The position numbers were made by a program, and so were the translations under genes. From the IMG/VR virus record IMGVR_UViG_3300006033_000021: a stretch of 64,000 nt of DNA; one strand, 5' to 3'. This document shows positions 41,613 to 64,000 of the stretch, in pieces (the first letter of the stretch is position 1; each line of letters begins with the position of its first letter). Source of the stretch: an uncultured virus (IMG/VR IMGVR_UViG_3300006033_000021) (taxonomy: Duplodnaviria > Heunggongvirae > Uroviricota > Caudoviricetes). The notes below the pieces were generated by a model. It ran no database searches. It worked only from the letters and a program-made list of their open reading frames with translations, and had not been told where the DNA came from.

Positions 41613-42051
41613 GGGGATGAAATGGTCTCGACAGGGAGTGTCGGAGTATTTCAATGCACGCCGGGGATGATGAGTTGGCCCCGTTAACAATCTTATCAAA
41701 CAATGAAATGACGAAGCTAACGTAGTTAGTATTAGTGACTTCCGCGCAGCTAAGGCCGCTAAGGTGGCTAAGGTTTCCGCTCCGGTCGCTTTCGCTCTCG
41801 CTGCCTAAATCGGCGAGACCGTTGGTCTAGGACTGTACCGAACAATAGCCTAGCAATGTTATTCCAAAAGTCGGTGTAGAGATCCACTGAATGACCTTTA
41901 GGTGGCTCGAAATAACTGGTTCTGAATTAGGCAAATGGCCTTGCTCATTGTGCTTCCGAGCCTAATTCAGCATTCAGGGGAACAATGAGACAAGCGTGTA
42001 GAGTTGGGTATAACGTCTCTTTGGACGCGAGTTCGATTCTCGCCATCTCCA
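41613..42051 (+). ncRNA. ssrA: tmRNA
   Basis: acceptor stem GGGGATG/CATCTCC-A with G3.U70; 5' GGTCTCGAC; T-arm GCGAG-TTCGATT-CTCGC; tag ORF 41710-41808 ending FALAA-stop; CCA not encoded. Confidence 0.95.
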
Positions 42052-42209
42052 TTGGTATTCAGGAGTATTAGGACACTGGATACTATCCCCTATTTTCCTA
42101 TCTCGCCTACATATGTAGAAGGAGACACAGGCCCGCTTCCACCATGGAGGCGGGCACTGGTTTTTATGGTGACTCCTGAATTGGAGTCATTCTTGCATTT
42201 AAGGAACCC

Positions 42210-57967: not shown

Positions 57968-58530
57968 AAGTCAAAGATCTAAGAGCAAGCTTGAATGTGT
58001 TTGACCGTGATGCTCTATGTTGCGCGACCTCAAAACGATTTGATACCGTATATGGTGTAGAAGCAATCTTTTATGGAGGTATCCCCAAGGATGATCCGTC
58101 AACCATATTAGAATACGAGAAGATTGGCGATATGAGCCAAGTTACTCCTGTTTTAACAATTATGGTTGATAGTCCGCTATATGTTGACTCCCTGAAAGAC
58201 AAGAGTACTTTATCAGATTATTGGTCGGTTGGCGAAGTTCTTGATTTTCTTACCTTCATTAATGACGATCTGGAAGTCCGTATCTTGGAATTAGAAGTTG
58301 GTGAACTTGCCAATCAATTTGATGAGTATCTGTATTGCGTAAAGGATGTTGTGGCTGCTTGGTGCTTACCATATGTCGGCGAGAATATAGCGACGGAGCA
58401 TCATTGGCTAACACCTGATATAGATATGGATGTGGTTGAGAAATATGTTGAGGATAATCATAACGCCATAACCTCCGAGGATGTTTTGGAAGACCATATT
58501 GTGGATTGTGCTTTGATTCAAAGCGCTTGA
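57964..58530 (+). CDS. acidic hypothetical protein
   Basis: ATGA overlap with upstream stop; GGGAG RBS. Confidence 0.6.
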   Translation: MKVKDLRASLNVFDRDALCCATSKRFDTVYGVEAIFYGGIPKDDPSTILEYEKIGDMSQVTPVLTIMVDSPLYVDSLKDKSTLSDYWSVGEVLDFLTFINDDLEVRILELEVGELANQFDEYLYCVKDVVAAWCLPYVGENIATEHHWLTPDIDMDVVEKYVEDNHNAITSEDVLEDHIVDCALIQSA

Positions 58531-58555
58531 CACCTACCGCTCGTTGTGGTACGAT
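58527..58555 (+). promoter_or_regulatory. sigma70-type promoter
   Basis: TTGACA-17-TACGAT with TG. Confidence 0.7.
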
Positions 58556-58580
58556 AGTGGTATAGGCAAGGAGTAATTGG

Positions 58581-59198
58581 ATGTGGTCCTCCGATATCAC
58601 TAAGGCATTTGACTATGCGATGTATAATCATCGCACACAAACACGCAAAGCCATGGGGTCGGTTCCTTATGGATCCCACCTCATGGCTGTTACTGCTATT
58701 GTTTTAGAATGCGGCGGCACAGAGGCAGAAGCTATTGCTGCATTGCTGCATGATGTCGTTGAAGACACAGATCGTACACTTAACGACATTCAGGTGTTGT
58801 TCGGCGACGAAGTGATGAGTATCGTTGCTCAAGTGAGCGAAGATAAGTCACTCAAATGGGAAGACCGAAAGCGAGCGGCTATTACGCATGTTACCGATAT
58901 GACCGATTCGGGTCTTTTGGTAAAATGTGCAGATGTGTTACATAACACTGGTACCTTGCTTTCTGATTTTGATAGTATCAACTGGTCTTTCTTTAAGAAG
59001 GGTAAGCATGTTACTCTTCACAAGTATAGTTCGGTACTCAAGGCGTTGGTTAATGAGGTGGCGCAGAGGCAGAACTTCGCGCCCGTCATAAGGGAGCGCT
59101 TGGATAAGACCTATGCTAATTTCCAGGAATTGGTGTTGACGCATTGTTGCGAATCAGATCCTCGAAAAGTCTACGATTGGTTTAAGGGAGAAGAATGA
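58581..59198 (+). CDS. stand-alone RelA/SpoT-type HD hydrolase (small alarmone hydrolase/MESH1-like)
   Basis: HRTQTRK..PYGSHL, AALLHDVVEDT, FGDEV, VKCADVLHN. Confidence 0.85.
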   Translation: MWSSDITKAFDYAMYNHRTQTRKAMGSVPYGSHLMAVTAIVLECGGTEAEAIAALLHDVVEDTDRTLNDIQVLFGDEVMSIVAQVSEDKSLKWEDRKRAAITHVTDMTDSGLLVKCADVLHNTGTLLSDFDSINWSFFKKGKHVTLHKYSSVLKALVNEVAQRQNFAPVIRERLDKTYANFQELVLTHCCESDPRKVYDWFKGEE

Positions 59199-59770
59199 TG
59201 GATTCAATAACTGTACAGGCTATGTTGGTAGAGTTTGCGAAGACCTTTGATGCTGAACAGATTCGTTACGCTGTCATGCAGGATACGAATCGACAAATTG
59301 GTGGGGAATTTGTAGGTTTTTCTAATGAGGGACTCTTATATCAGGGCCTTTATAGTTATGATATTGACGTAATTACATGGCGGGAATTTGACGATATAAA
59401 GGATTGTGCCCCAGCTATTTATGAAGAGTTCCAAACCAAGCTGCAAGAGAAGATTCAGCTAAAAGCGGAGCATGAAAACCTGTTGACTTATCTTAGAGAG
59501 CGCGTTCGTATGTTTGATAGAGATATCTCGTCTCATATAAGCGCAATCAAGGCTCTTTCTGCCTCTCAACAGGCAAGTCCGTTGTTTAAGGACTGGAAGA
59601 GTTTAATCGATGATCGTCAGCAACGACTTAATCATGCAACGCTTGGTAAGTCGCTTTTGGAAGAAGCGCTGAAGAATCTGCGAGCCGTTTTTCTTGAGGA
59701 TTTGCCCTCAGTAAAGCGTAATCTTGAAATTCTGCAAGCATTGAGGGATGACCCTCGTATGATTCCTTGA
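59195..59770 (+). CDS. hypothetical coiled-coil protein
   Basis: ATGA overlap. Confidence 0.6.
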   Translation: MMDSITVQAMLVEFAKTFDAEQIRYAVMQDTNRQIGGEFVGFSNEGLLYQGLYSYDIDVITWREFDDIKDCAPAIYEEFQTKLQEKIQLKAEHENLLTYLRERVRMFDRDISSHISAIKALSASQQASPLFKDWKSLIDDRQQRLNHATLGKSLLEEALKNLRAVFLEDLPSVKRNLEILQALRDDPRMIP

Positions 59771-59777
59771 GGAGAAA

Positions 59778-60224
59778 ATGATGTGTTTGAGTGATTGGTT
59801 ACAGTTAATTGAACGGGTTTCAGAGAAGTGGCAGAAGAATTACATCGAGGATTGCATGATTGCTCAACCAAAGCAATCATGGACCCGTCAGTATGGCAGG
59901 GCCATAACACCCTATACCGAAAATTGCTTGATTTATAAGCAGTGGGTTATAGGCGGGATTACTGGGTGTGGATGGAGCGATAAAGACCAAGGCTATCCCA
60001 GAGATCCTGATCCTGAACCGAATAATGATTTGCTGGATGCTATCTTAACAGAGGTAGCACCCGACATCAAGTATCTTCAGTATCGTAAGATTGAAGCACT
60101 GGAAAAGCAGTCATATTACGAAGAACAATCAGGATACTACGGTAATCGTAATAGGTATGCTGTTAAGACGATTGCCTTGAAAGATCTGTATGCGGCTCTA
60201 GTCGATATGGGATATCTTCAATAG
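59778..60224 (+). CDS. hypothetical protein
   Basis: GAGGAG RBS. Confidence 0.65.
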   Translation: MMCLSDWLQLIERVSEKWQKNYIEDCMIAQPKQSWTRQYGRAITPYTENCLIYKQWVIGGITGCGWSDKDQGYPRDPDPEPNNDLLDAILTEVAPDIKYLQYRKIEALEKQSYYEEQSGYYGNRNRYAVKTIALKDLYAALVDMGYLQ

Positions 60225-60257
60225 GATTCCAGGATTGTCAATGGGTATCAATACCAT

Positions 60258-60719
60258 ATGGACCTATTGAGGATAGTTTTAGCTAACATGCGCACACTTG
60301 AACAAGATCTGTATTCAATTGTGCCTGCTATTGTGGCGAGCGCGCAAGCGGCTTATAATAAGCATGATTTGTTGCCTGAGGATATCGAGGATTTGGCGGG
60401 TGGTGGTATCTGTGATGATATCGCAGAAGCCATCGCAGAAGCCATTAATGAAGCTTTATTTTCGGGTGACTCAGATGTAGACGTTGAAGCTAAAACTGTT
60501 CATCATATGGACGAAAACCATACATTGGTATATGTTCGAAGGATACAGCAAAACGGTGGAGTCGAAGTGGTTATGGTTGATATTCCATACCATATCTATG
60601 AGACACAAAGGGGGTATTATCAGTATGATATTACTCCAAATGTGGTTTTCGAGCCAAATAATGTGCTAATCAATACTATTGATATCTCCTCCGAGGATTT
60701 TGACGCTTTAGACGAGTAG
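60258..60719 (+). CDS. acidic hypothetical protein
   Basis: 153 aa; GGGICDDIA; variant class II motif upstream. Confidence 0.6.
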   Translation: MDLLRIVLANMRTLEQDLYSIVPAIVASAQAAYNKHDLLPEDIEDLAGGGICDDIAEAIAEAINEALFSGDSDVDVEAKTVHHMDENHTLVYVRRIQQNGGVEVVMVDIPYHIYETQRGYYQYDITPNVVFEPNNVLINTIDISSEDFDALDE

Positions 60720-60743
60720 TATAATAGAGCTAGGAGAATAAGA

Positions 60744-61073
60744 ATGCGCAGATATTAGGACCAACACTTCTACGTACTGGTAAGGGATGACCTTCCCATT
60801 CCTCAACAAGCTGTTCAGGCAATTCACGCCGCTCACGAAGCAGCTTTACACTTAGTCGAACCTCCCCCTAAGATTGCATCATTGGTACTATGTTCTGTGC
60901 CAGATGAAGATGCTTTACTTCGGGCTGAGCATGTCCTTAATATGAAGGGCGTGCGTAGCATTGTCTTTTATGAACCCGATATGGGTAATATCCCTACTGC
61001 TCTGGCTACAGAGTATGTGACGGGTTCCACTCGTAAGTTGTTTAGTAAATATCCACTATGGGGAAAGGAGTAA
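60744..61073 (+). CDS. PTH2-like peptidyl-tRNA hydrolase with in-frame UAG at codon 5
   Basis: AGGAG-ATG CGC AGA TAT TAG GAC...; reading on gives FYVLVRDDL..QQAVQAIHAA...FYEPDMGNIPTALA, a PTH2-family pattern. Confidence 0.75.
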
Positions 61074-61076
61074 ACC

Positions 61077-61118
61077 ATGTTGTAGGGCACGGTAGAACGC
61101 GCGCCTCCCATTGGCTAA
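61077..61118 (+). other. leader minigene ML(UAG)GTVERAPPIG*
   Basis: AAGGAG RBS overlapping the PTH2 stop; RAPP follows an in-frame UAG. Confidence 0.55.
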
Positions 61119-61158
61119 CTAAATCGGTATGTTGCCCTTTTGCCAATGGAGAGATACA

Positions 61159-61527
61159 ATGTTAACTGAATATATCATCGACCGTTTAACCAAGATTCGT
61201 CAGCGTATCAAGGCTTGTGCTTACTATGTGACTAACCAGGAGCATTGCAAGCCTGAAGATTATGATGAGATCATTAAGACAATCAGCCCATATAGCCGTA
61301 GTTGTGAATACTATATGACTGCCTTGTTGAATCTACACCATAAGATTCGTGGTCATACTGAAAGTTATCACGACTATAAGCCAGCTAAGGATGGTTCTCA
61401 TGATGGGCGACAAAACTATGTGAGTAGCCTTCAGTATGCGCTCATGAAAGAACTCGACATTACCAAGGAGATGCTCGATATGATCGCTGCAAATGTCGAG
61501 GAATATCAAGCGCAGAAAGTTGCGTAA
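61159..61527 (+). CDS. hypothetical protein downstream of PTH2 with occludable RBS
   Basis: GGAGAG RBS (61148-61153) pairs with 61105-61115. Confidence 0.65.
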   Translation: MLTEYIIDRLTKIRQRIKACAYYVTNQEHCKPEDYDEIIKTISPYSRSCEYYMTALLNLHHKIRGHTESYHDYKPAKDGSHDGRQNYVSSLQYALMKELDITKEMLDMIAANVEEYQAQKVA

Positions 61528-61538
61528 TATTGCGCAAT

Positions 61539-61571
61539 GGGGCGGTGGGGGGGATGATTCTCCACCGCCCC
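61539..61571 (+). terminator. GC-rich hairpin closing the PTH2 unit
   Basis: GGGGCGGTGGGG...CTCCACCGCCCC; no strong U-tract. Confidence 0.5.
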
Positions 61572-61618
61572 GAATACAGGAATTTTGAACCATAAGGCCG
61601 AATGAGATATTGGAGGCT

Positions 61619-62029
61619 ATGATGCGATACTTACTAAAGTGCTTGACAGTTATAGTGCTATTGGCTACTCCTCTTTTTGGGCAATCGCTCAATGATCCTA
61701 ATGTAACAGCTACAGCTAAAGGGCAATGTGTTGTTATTCCTCTTAGATATGCAGATGCACCAGCGTTGGCAATGCTATTCGCCAATTCTCAGTGTCAGGG
61801 GATGCCATTGAGATATCAGATGTTAATGATGATGTCTGGTGGTTTTGGTAATCAGGGCGGCATGGGCGGCGGCAATCAAAATCGCTACGGTGGCGGTATG
61901 GGTGGCTGGGGCAACCAGGGTGGCGGTATGGGCTACGGTGGCGGTATGGGCGGTTTTGGTAACCAGGGTGGCTACGGTGGTGGTCCGCGCGGCTATCAAG
62001 GCGGCTTTGGTCGTAACCGGAGAAATTAG
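61619..62029 (+). CDS. secreted protein with secretin N-domain-like motif and Gly-rich low-complexity tail
   Basis: signal peptide; VIPLRYADAPALA; repeated GGMGG(F/W)GNQGG. Confidence 0.6.
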   Translation: MMRYLLKCLTVIVLLATPLFGQSLNDPNVTATAKGQCVVIPLRYADAPALAMLFANSQCQGMPLRYQMLMMMSGGFGNQGGMGGGNQNRYGGGMGGWGNQGGGMGYGGGMGGFGNQGGYGGGPRGYQGGFGRNRRN

Positions 62030-62232
62030 TGAGCGACCAACCCACAATACTTACTGATGAAAAAGGTAAGATAGTAACTTTATCCGAGTTGATGCGAGGA
62101 ACTGTATATGAGCACGCCTGTAAGCGAGGTGTTACTCATACAATTGACACCAATAGTAGATCGAAACTTCTGCGTGATCCAGTGGCGGGTATCCACTATC
62201 CTAAGTCCAAACCTCATAGGGGCTCAACCTAG
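62029..62232 (+). CDS. small hypothetical protein
   Basis: GTG start overlapping upstream stop. Confidence 0.5.
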   Translation: MSDQPTILTDEKGKIVTLSELMRGTVYEHACKRGVTHTIDTNSRSKLLRDPVAGIHYPKSKPHRGST

Positions 62233-62307
62233 CTCCTAGAGCGGGCTATACGCCTCATCCTTGAAATGAAAAATGGGTACTTTTCATTTCAAGCCAAGGA
62301 GATAAGA

Positions 62308-62610
62308 ATGAGTAGGGATCGTTCTTGGCGGCGCTCTCAAACCGAGCGGGTAATTCAACGACGCGGTAAATGCGTACAGATGTGGGGCTTCGACGAAGAC
62401 CACCTCTGGGTTTCTCAACCCCACCGCTTGAGTAAGTATAATCTCGTCTGCGACTGTTGGATGTGCAATCATAAACATCAACGTCGCCATGCTGTTTCAG
62501 TAACAATGGGGCGAACATTGGTTCCATATGAAGCTGAAGATATTCTTGAAGTCCCATCGAATCTGCGGCGGTGTCTTAAGCTTCCGCATCCTGTTCAAAA
62601 TGTGTGGTAA
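62308..62610 (+). CDS. basic hypothetical protein with CxCxxC
   Basis: AAGGAG RBS; CDCWMC. Confidence 0.6.
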   Translation: MSRDRSWRRSQTERVIQRRGKCVQMWGFDEDHLWVSQPHRLSKYNLVCDCWMCNHKHQRRHAVSVTMGRTLVPYEAEDILEVPSNLRRCLKLPHPVQNVW

Positions 62611-62652
62611 GATTGGGTCATAGGTGCTATAACTCCTATATAGGAGTTTCAA

Positions 62653-63540
62653 ATGGCATTTACGACAATCACACCGGGGACACTACCCGTCGTCAACGTG
62701 AGTGGGGATACATTGCCCGAAGTATGGGAGGCAGCACTAGTTGCTGTATGGGACCATGGGGCGGCTATTCCCACTCAATACGACAAGCCCGGTGATCCAC
62801 CTAGCAAAGATGCTACAGCCATCTTAACTATCCACCATCCTCTACAAGAGCCCCGTATTCACCTCGCATTCCCAGGCGGTATAGCGGATCTAGAGATCTA
62901 TCGCCAAGAAGTCGTAGATGGTATTCACGATCATTGGATTGATCCCAAAGCCGGCAAGTGGGAGTATACCTATCACGAGCGATTGTTTGATTACAAGGTT
63001 TTGGTAAAGCAAGATGCTGGGACGGTTTTTGAATGCCGGCCTATAAAGCATATCAATCAGATCCAATACGTAATTGACGCTTTAGTAGAAGCCCCTCATA
63101 CACGCAGAGCCCAAGCTATTACTTGGAAACCGTGGGAGGATTGTGGTATTAGCGATCCCGCATGTCTCCAGTCATTATGGTTCCGTATATTTGATGATGA
63201 ATTGGTAATGAATGTTAGAATGAGATCTAATGATCTATTTAAGGCTACATTCATGAATCTTTATGCCTTTATAGATTTGCAAAGATTGGTGGCTGAAAAA
63301 GTATCAGAAAAGCTTGGTAGAGAAATCCGTGTTGGTCAGGTTAATCACCAAGTTGATTCTATGCATATCTACGGGTCTTATTATCAAGAGGTTGAGCGTT
63401 TCCTTGACACAATGAAGAATAAAACCTTCAGTCAGAGGACTTGGAATGCTTGTGATTACGCTGATGTCTTTGAAGAGGCTAAGGCTGATATCAAAAAGTC
63501 TCTAGAAGAAGAAAAGCGCACAGGCAGAAAAGGAGTCTAG
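62653..63540 (+). CDS. thyA: thymidylate synthase (ThyA fold)
   Basis: YTYHERL, TRRAQAITW, DPACLQ (catalytic Cys), RMRSND, Asn in FMNLYA, SMHIY. Confidence 0.85.
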   Translation: MAFTTITPGTLPVVNVSGDTLPEVWEAALVAVWDHGAAIPTQYDKPGDPPSKDATAILTIHHPLQEPRIHLAFPGGIADLEIYRQEVVDGIHDHWIDPKAGKWEYTYHERLFDYKVLVKQDAGTVFECRPIKHINQIQYVIDALVEAPHTRRAQAITWKPWEDCGISDPACLQSLWFRIFDDELVMNVRMRSNDLFKATFMNLYAFIDLQRLVAEKVSEKLGREIRVGQVNHQVDSMHIYGSYYQEVERFLDTMKNKTFSQRTWNACDYADVFEEAKADIKKSLEEEKRTGRKGV

Positions 63541-63541
63541 A

Positions 63542-63943
63542 ATGGGTAACTGGTTTGAAATGTGTGGAATAGAAGATTGGACAGATTTAGATAAGGAATT
63601 CCCATCTTCTCCTGTGGTTCTAACTATTGATGAGGCTAAAGATGAGGATCGCTCATTTCCATTGATTTCAGCCGTTAAATTCAATGATGATGGAATGTAT
63701 TTGATTTGGGTTGATAATTCTGTGTCATTAATAGAGTGGTCAACCTATAAAGACAACAGATATTATTTGGCTGATTTCTGTAATATGCATACGCCGAATT
63801 GGTTCGATGCGGCCCAGTCATTATTGGCCTCGGCGGGACTTACACCTAATGCTATGGGTGCGGCCTTTGCAATGACAGAAGATTGTCTAAGTAAAAGCCT
63901 GATGGAAGAAAACCCTACAGACAGAAAAGGCGTACAAGTGTAG
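63542..63943 (+). CDS. hypothetical protein
   Basis: AAGGAG RBS; class II motif AGGA-N16-AAGAA follows at 63942-63966. Confidence 0.6.
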   Translation: MGNWFEMCGIEDWTDLDKEFPSSPVVLTIDEAKDEDRSFPLISAVKFNDDGMYLIWVDNSVSLIEWSTYKDNRYYLADFCNMHTPNWFDAAQSLLASAGLTPNAMGAAFAMTEDCLSKSLMEENPTDRKGVQV

Positions 63944-64000
63944 GAAAGATTCACTTACAACAAGAAAGTTAGAGGGTAATAGGGATATTCGGAGGTTGAA

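Follow-up and report, generated by a model that had tools for sequence, protein, structure and literature searches.

An amber-gated gene with a PTH2-like fold in an uncultured phage and the suppressor tRNA genes that accompany its relatives

We examined a small gene in a 64,000-nt stretch of DNA from an uncultured virus of the Caudoviricetes (IMG/VR record IMGVR_UViG_3300006033_000021), referred to here as the window. The gene begins at ATG 60744 on the + strand, meets an in-frame amber codon (TAG) as its fifth codon and is then open to 61073, coding for a protein with the fold of the Pth2 peptidyl-tRNA hydrolases. Relatives of this gene share the early stop and are often found beside a tRNA gene whose anticodon reads that same stop, which suggests that expression of the gene probably depends on an active tRNA of this kind. 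We consider it likely that this is a complete working gene whose translation from ATG 60744 needs amber suppression, an arrangement that would tie a tRNA-ester hydrolase-like protein to suppressor activity.

The gene, its early stop and its predicted fold

A preliminary description of this DNA, made from the letters alone, had listed a TATAAT, an AGGAG, an ATG, the short peptide MRRY closed by TAG and an open frame to 61073, and the sequence is as it described. The Shine-Dalgarno (SD) sequence AGGAG (60732–60736) stands 7 nt ahead of the ATG, the leader ATG CGC AGA TAT (60744–60755) translates to MRRY, and the in-frame TAG (60756–60758, next base G), which we call the gate, is followed by the codons GAC CAA CAC TTC TAC GTA CTG GTA AGG, giving the translation MRRY*DQHFYVLVRDDL.... 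The coding part with the PTH2 fold (60759–61073) comprises 104 codons, DQHFYVLVRDDL...LWGKE, and ends with TAA at 61071–61073, all on the + strand. The same description held that readthrough of the TAG is the one way to obtain the full fold, and this stands: the earliest ATG, GTG or TTG past the gate is TTG 60882, 41 codons downstream, and in the predicted structure a start there would drop strand 1 and helix 1, which bear the invariant residues Q16, Q17, Q20 and H23. The window has 155 open frames of 80 codons or more, and in no other of them are an SD sequence, a start, a short leader and a stop followed by a frame without a start in its first 15 codons. The RNA past the TAG showed no unusual structure, as 60726–60845 does not fold better than shuffled sequence (z 0.60).

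A PTH2-like fold had also been proposed, and structure prediction bore this out. The AlphaFold2 model of the window protein, built with nine sequences, has a mean predicted local distance difference test (pLDDT) score of 91.8 and contains four strands and three helices. A Foldseek search of the PDB returned Pth2/Bit1 chains for all of the top 12 matches (E 6e-6 to 3e-4, template-modelling (TM) scores 0.70–0.80), including 3erj, 2zv3, 1wn2, 1q7s, 1rlk and 1xty. Excerpts of PMC11202043 describe the Pth2 fold as a four-stranded sheet with flanking helices, and the model of the window protein has the four strands. At the level of sequence the window protein lies under the gathering score of the Pfam PTH2 family (PF01981; 14.7 bits, E 0.036, vs 23 bits) and matches phrog_1866, to which no function is assigned, at E 3e-5. 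A PF01981 match at E ≤0.1 was found in eight of nine family members (best 2.7e-4), and the C-terminal domain of ORF364 of phage XacN1 clears the cut-off (25.3 vs 23 bits).

The family is widespread among phages as PTH2-fold proteins of ~100 aa, and the profile search gave 3050 cluster representatives at E ≤0.001 (1134 at ≤1e-10), so it is large. In XacN1 (L001, ORF364), Xoo-sp13 and RAS14 the PTH2-like domain forms the C-terminus of a ~280-aa protein. The N-terminal part of these proteins, from Xanthomonas/Stenotrophomonas jumbo phages (L001 to L003), carries an H..HD-like motif, WHDIGKP, and has no Pfam match at E ≤0.01; genes near these three loci include a glutamyl-tRNA amidotransferase and a valyl-tRNA synthetase. 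A search of longer proteins found no fused forms, which is weak evidence; the HD-fused form of XacN1 surfaced through tblastn. Two proteins of the window were considered as counterparts of the XacN1-type N-terminal domain and rejected, namely the open reading frame (ORF) directly upstream of the gene (BLASTP vs XacN1 ORF364, E 1.5) and an HD_4 protein at 58581–59198 (E 0.27).

With this fold the product would be a tRNA-ester hydrolase-like protein. In a weak HMMER alignment (E 0.07–0.8) the invariant Q16/Q17 stand opposite K-K or G-K of 24bt_A and 1q7s_A, and the invariant E72 stands opposite the Asp of K-D-A-G in the Pth2 chains. We take the Lys and Asp at these positions to be the catalytic residues of Pth2. 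The excerpts of PMC4929431 and PMC11202043 do not name the Pth2 catalytic residues. The preliminary description went further in calling the product a rescue enzyme; such a role is conjectural, and the family has an invariant Gln at the Pth2 Lys position.

Conservation of the early stop

To collect relatives, a metagenome scan was seeded with an alignment and the pattern QQ[AFL][VC]QA[IVC]HA, and the best 80 of 129 relatives were kept. A scan of viral contigs with the alignment gave 17 more, and a viral scan with the single protein gave none. Together with the window this makes 98 loci, 85 of them distinct (the window and 84 related loci). We scored a locus as gated when an in-frame start lies 1–12 codons before a stop, the stop lies 2–12 codons before the conserved Tyr, and no ATG, GTG or TTG stands between. 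By this definition 46 of the 85 distinct loci are gated, 40 with TAG, 6 with TGA and none with TAA, so the arrangement of SD sequence, ATG, few codons and stop that the preliminary description had proposed to look for in homologs is indeed conserved. Another 18 of the 85 combine a leader and stop with a start codon close to the strand, in most cases the GTG of a Val within Y-V-Y-V-L-V-R, and we read some of them (L081 and L134, for example) as ordinary plain starts. Plain starts account for a further 18, one locus has neither a leader nor a start before the strand, and two are cut at the 5′ end. In L006 and L125 the open frame is entirely without a start codon.

The gated loci share the position of the stop at 35–59% protein identity, and the leader itself has recurring features. 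Its commonest form is ATG ACG TAG; among the 46 gated loci ACG directly precedes the stop in 19 and an ACN codon in 27, and the start nearest the stop sits two codons away in 21, with leaders ranging from 1 to 12 codons. The stop is followed by G in 37 loci, by A in six and by C in three, but never by T, and SD-like purine-rich columns run ahead of the leader start. The same arrangement is found in all six loci from the genome collection, which are from metagenome-assembled genomes (MAGs) and each have a TAG gate and a tRNA(CUA), and in all six phage records, where an ATG, one to three codons and TAG stand ahead of the gene. In XacN1, Xoo-sp13 and RAS14 this reads ATG AAG (AAG) TAG immediately before the conserved N-terminus, while the stand-alone gated copies read ATG TTG TAG in RsoM2USA, ATG ACT TAG in ME3 and ATG ACT CAC TAG in the 595-kb contig LR756511. 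The gate labels cluster on a quick tree (12 changes vs a shuffled mean of 25.4), which was built without seven short rows and two that are open at the 5′ end.

These comparisons bear on a reading in which the short ORF is a regulatory upstream ORF, with termination at UAG and re-initiation a few codons on at a non-canonical codon such as CTG 60777, and no readthrough at all. Such coupling typically involves a strong SD sequence, an ATG and a leader of very few codons, and the 18 loci with GTG or ATG near the strand could be seen in the same light. However, the codon after the stop is variable (GTN, GGN, GAN, GCN, ACN, ATN, CTN or AAN) and no start-like codon is conserved past it. One sub-clade has a longer leader that ends Gly-Phe-x-stop, written with GGA, GGT or GGC and TTC or TTT in at least 12 loci; because Gly-Phe is kept across synonymous codons, selection appears to act on the peptide and the leader to be translated, and it is always in frame with the body. 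Nor would coupling predict that the type of stop tracks the anticodon of the neighbouring tRNA, as described below. We therefore consider re-initiation quite improbable.

A dead gene could also be considered, with the TAG arising from nonsense mutation or faulty assembly, as it is a lone in-frame stop at codon 5. All four sequencing runs compared with the window were available as contigs. Contigs of run X1 cover 60300–61500 with no differences at a depth of ~16, and this is the only full-length confirmation, from a run that is possibly the window's own source. A 203-nt contig of the independent run X2 spans the TAG and ends 8 nt beyond it, where differences at contig ends are unlisted, so that it does not give independent confirmation. 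A search of 59700–62100 against the phage collection with blastn gave no match. Against a dead gene, the stop is kept at the same position in the 46 diverged loci above, and a variant in X2 with ~97% identity differs in the coding part by six synonymous changes and one V>I. These substitutions point to a gene that is under selection in the window lineage, and from the sequences the TAG appears to be no error and the gene not decayed; decay or misassembly is contradicted by the data and is very improbable.

A gate of this kind would be expected to mislead gene callers, and there are examples. The 58-aa protein P0005 is 100% identical to the tail of the window gene and begins at GTG 60897–60899, which looks like a mis-called start; the X2 variant is without this internal GTG. 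The RAS14 (L003) gene is annotated from a GTG 22 codons past the TAG, with conserved residues in between, and the gated gene of RsoM2USA (MG752970.1; L154 2372–2710) is unannotated, lying between RsoM2USA_93 and RsoM2USA_92. The last two cases look like annotation errors caused by the gate. The errors are systematic, in that gene callers miss or shorten gated genes.

Suppressor tRNA genes, genetic code and surroundings

The second line of evidence comes from the tRNA genes called by ARAGORN around the related loci. Of the 84 related distinct loci, 49 have a tRNA with a stop-reading anticodon next to the gene, and suppressors make up 55 of the 106 tRNAs in these loci. Exactly one tRNA is present in 36 loci, and in 33 of them it is a suppressor; the suppressor is the tRNA nearest to the gene in 47 of 55 tRNA-bearing loci, and in 46 of these 47 it is on the same strand as the gene. 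It often ends 59–112 nt upstream of the gene or begins 29–630 nt downstream. The anticodon follows the gate: tRNA(CUA) is present in 23 of the 40 TAG-gated loci and tRNA(UCA) in none, while tRNA(UCA) is present in three of the six TGA-gated loci and tRNA(CUA) in none, so that the anticodon fits the gate in 26 of the 26 gated loci that hold a suppressor tRNA. Further DNA gave a UCA tRNA for two more TGA cases, L065 and the L124 record. Inspection by eye found a CTA anticodon and then ATG ACC TAG in L004, a TCA anticodon and then ATG GGC GGA TGA in L028, and a CTA anticodon and then ATG CGC CAG TAG in L122. Since L028 and L122 are neighbours on the quick tree with clearly different tRNAs, gate and tRNA appear to have changed together. 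Plain-start relatives, too, often adjoin a tRNA(CUA), for example L059, L060, L061 and L077, which suggests that the link between this family and suppressors is wider than the gate. Compared with canonical tRNAs for their amino-acid identity, the suppressor tRNAs have best matches of 64–81%, spread over many different types.

Whole genomes gave the same picture. A tRNA(CUA) is encoded in all six TAG-gated phage genomes, as two tandem copies in XacN1 and one copy each in Xoo-sp13, RAS14, RsoM2USA, ME3 and LR756511. With G002, a complete 191.5-kb viral contig with terminal repeats, a matching suppressor tRNA is found in seven of seven complete or near-complete gated genomes (CM1 was left out of this count). 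G002 has 13 tRNAs, and its sole suppressor, a tRNA(CUA), lies 59 nt before the gated gene and apart from the main tRNA cluster. The XacN1 tRNAs lie ~200 kb from the gated gene. In excerpts of the XacN1 report (PMC5852040), in-silico readthrough of 18 amber stops revealed no further similarity and a target gene of the suppressor was not identified. With its two-codon leader, ORF364 is a candidate that this approach would have missed, because annotated gene ends were extended.

The window uses the standard code and not code 15, in agreement with the earlier statement that the region is not globally recoded. Among 77 greedily chosen ORFs of at least 80 aa, 35 end with TAG, 30 with TAA and 12 with TGA, with genes packed right behind the TAG-ended ones, and reading TAG as sense lowers the cover from 0.910 to 0.896. 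TAG as the commonest stop is unusual in DNA of 43% G+C, and it stands out alongside an amber-gated gene. In G002 TAG ends 35 of 192 ORFs and the cover hardly rises with TAG as sense (0.907 to 0.923), and ORFs flanking the gated loci are TAG-ended in 29 of 130 cases. A scan of G002 for more gated genes was uninformative, as its 62.6% G+C and 1146 open frames give many chance candidates. That TAG is sense throughout the window, or that two TAG readthroughs fuse the gene to the upstream ORF (60258–60719), which ends 24 nt ahead of ATG 60744, is contradicted by these data and has next to no probability. The upstream ORF is TAG-ended and in frame, and neither TAA nor TGA occurs among the 12 intervening codons, but a shared frame without another stop is expected by chance about one time in four, and no relation exists between this ORF and the N-terminal domain of the XacN1 fusion protein. 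In the X2 variant a single additional G behind 60718 puts the two out of frame and so rules out the fusion.

Several observations weigh against a gene licensed by a suppressor tRNA. The relatives were seeded with a single pattern and many loci are related, so that the counts above are not independent events, and the quick tree requires no more than that TGA gates arose at least twice. The sequenced DNA holds no suppressor tRNA in 17 of the 40 TAG-gated and three of the six TGA-gated loci, many of them short contigs. Seven such loci, the window and L124 included, have at least 2.5 kb on both sides; the related gated loci with full flanks and no suppressor tRNA anywhere in the DNA read number five or six, namely L018, L021, L032, L039 and L125, and L063 (the same stretch as L062). 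No tRNA gene was found in the 64 kb of the window by ARAGORN or by a whole-window Rfam gathering scan, and an Rfam E-value scan of 58000–64000 found no degenerate tRNA near the gene. Strong amber suppression would also lengthen many of the phage's own proteins, as TAG is the stop that the window uses most. The invariant Gln-Gln where Pth2 has Lys means that the chemistry may differ, and no RNA run is among the runs listed as containing the stretch.

It is possible to read some of these points as a phage without any suppressor tRNA, in which the TAG throttles a potentially harmful enzyme to the level of near-cognate readthrough, or raises it when the host's release factor 1 (RF1) is limiting. 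The tRNA-free window with its many TAG stops would suit this reading, as would the five or six other gated loci with full flanks. Yet a matching suppressor was present in every complete or near-complete gated genome, sometimes as far off as in XacN1, the window is only part of a larger genome, and L124, another such locus, had its tRNA(UCA) 1.5 kb past the locus. We regard this reading as unlikely, and a throttle or RF1 sensor without a tRNA is possible for this phage alone. Given the distance of the XacN1 tRNAs from their gene, a suppressor tRNA elsewhere in this phage is most likely. The preliminary description had proposed that MRRY-UAG senses failing termination through either a suppressor tRNA or a shortage of RF1; the former trigger is strongly supported by the matching adjacent tRNA genes in relatives, and sensing of RF1 shortage is conjectural.

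A full-length transfer-messenger RNA (tmRNA) lies at 41613–42054 (+) in the window (Rfam RF00023, 116 bits, E 1e-44, model positions 1–374), in a gap between ORFs, and was not called by ARAGORN. XacN1 and L005 likewise carry a tmRNA near their tRNAs, and a phage-borne tmRNA fits the theme of translation rescue.

Some further features of these loci were recorded. In the window a putative promoter-like stretch (60700–60725, +) consists of TTGACG (60700–60705), a 14-nt spacer and TATAAT (60720–60725); TTGACG is the only −35-like hexamer near the TATAAT, and a promoter consensus scan that requires a spacer of 16–18 nt does not call the stretch. Near-consensus promoters stand between the suppressor tRNA and the leader in L004 (2447–2475; TTGACT, 17 nt, TAGAAT) and L028 (2445–2473; TTGACC, 17 nt, TATAAG), and with these hexamers the gated gene may be transcribed from a separate promoter and independently of the tRNA. 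Near the module ARAGORN also called tRNA-like genes whose anticodon loops are 4-base (cttc, gaaa) or 2-base (L039 692–765, L047 682–758 and L010 2004–2081), which may be frameshift-suppressor-like tRNAs or artefacts. UUA (ochre-reading) tRNAs are found in RAS14 (L119 4029–4103) and beside the plain-start L042 (17–90), with no TAA gate among the 46. On the 3′ side of the window gene is a spacer of 85 nt holding an inverted repeat at 61108–61149 (+), CCATTGGC ... GCCAATGG, with 8 bp arms and a 26-nt loop; it overlaps the SD region of the next ORF and is not a tRNA according to ARAGORN or Rfam. A 139-aa ORF at 61610–62029 (+) has a hydrophobic N-terminus and a repetitive Gly/Met/Asn/Gln-rich tail (GGMGGGNQ...), and has no Pfam match.

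Proposed mechanism, known systems and significance

Based on the above, we propose that ribosomes would initiate at ATG 60744 with the help of AGGAG, make MRRY and reach the UAG. Decoding of the UAG by an amber-suppressor tRNA would then let them enter the 104 fold-forming codons, and the amount of protein would be proportional to suppressor activity. In relatives the suppressor would come from beside the gene or from elsewhere in the same phage genome; for this phage the remaining genome is the most likely source, or else a co-infecting phage or the host. The product would hydrolyse esters on the 3′ ends of tRNA, and its likeliest role may be to clear peptidyl-tRNA and stalled-translation products that arise from suppression, in parallel to the phage's own tmRNA. 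Because an acceptor-end enzyme of ~100 aa is paired with diverse CUA and UCA tRNAs, recognition of the anticodon seems unlikely, which makes a general clearing activity the most likely one, and this fits the co-carried tmRNA. A feedback circuit is a possible though rather doubtful alternative role: the enzyme, made only through suppression, would discharge or curb the suppressor tRNA and so set the level of readthrough, and in TAG-rich phages with no suppressor gene in 64 kb it would be an alarm or antidote against the suppressor tRNAs of competitors. Such a role would be more novel than general clearing.

The nearest relatives by fold are the archaeal and eukaryotic Pth2 enzymes (human Bit1/PTRH2; PF01981), which share the small alpha/beta fold and whose R-D-L...Q..HA and T-A-L motifs align with the phage protein. 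Unlike Pth2, the phage protein has a loop after the acidic residue that is 4 residues shorter and the phage family has its invariant Gln-Gln where Pth2 chains have (G)K or KK, and it is phage-borne, suppressor-tRNA-linked and stop-gated. Early stops with a regulatory function are familiar from prfB, in which an early in-frame UGA and a +1 frameshift sense the gene's own product, RF2. In both cases an early in-frame stop ties synthesis of a translation factor to how that stop is read, but in the phage family the body follows leader and stop in the zero frame, the gene codes for a PTH2-fold protein and not a release factor, and the stop would be read by a tRNA encoded next door. The bar minigenes of lambda, mini-ORFs of an SD sequence, ATG, one codon and a stop, resemble the family's commonest leader, ATG ACG TAG, whereas the window leader has four codons; bar minigenes are not known to have a start-less gene in frame behind them or a link to suppressor tRNAs. 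The preliminary description had connected the leader with bar-like drop-off of peptidyl-tRNA, and such a connection is conjectural.

The closest published idea, as far as the excerpts of Borges et al. (bioRxiv 10.1101/2021.08.26.457843) go, concerns phages with an alternative code, their code-change modules and their recoded lytic genes; the present case is a variant of it in standard-code genomes. There a suppressor tRNA licenses genes with in-frame TAG or TGA, in-frame stops occur in many late genes, and the idea is raised that a phage could use recoding to sense suppressor tRNAs that belong to others. The phage-encoded licensing and the use of TAG and TGA, never TAA, are common to both. Differences from what these excerpts describe are that genomes with the gated gene (the window, G002, XacN1) are standard-code, that the stop falls within the first 13 codons, that the gene often adjoins the tRNA and has a tRNA-ester hydrolase-like product, and that only one gated gene was found in the window, where the scan for further ones was made, that of G002 being too noisy. 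Full-text searches of the literature turned up no account in which a PTH2-like gene is paired with a phage suppressor tRNA or gated for one.

Many jumbo phages with the standard code carry suppressor tRNAs of puzzling purpose, and the gated family offers these tRNAs a concrete, conserved target. The arrangement would be a natural circuit in which a tRNA gene licenses the translation of an enzyme directed at tRNA, and it bears on how phages handle the cost of stop suppression and on how changes of the genetic code evolve.

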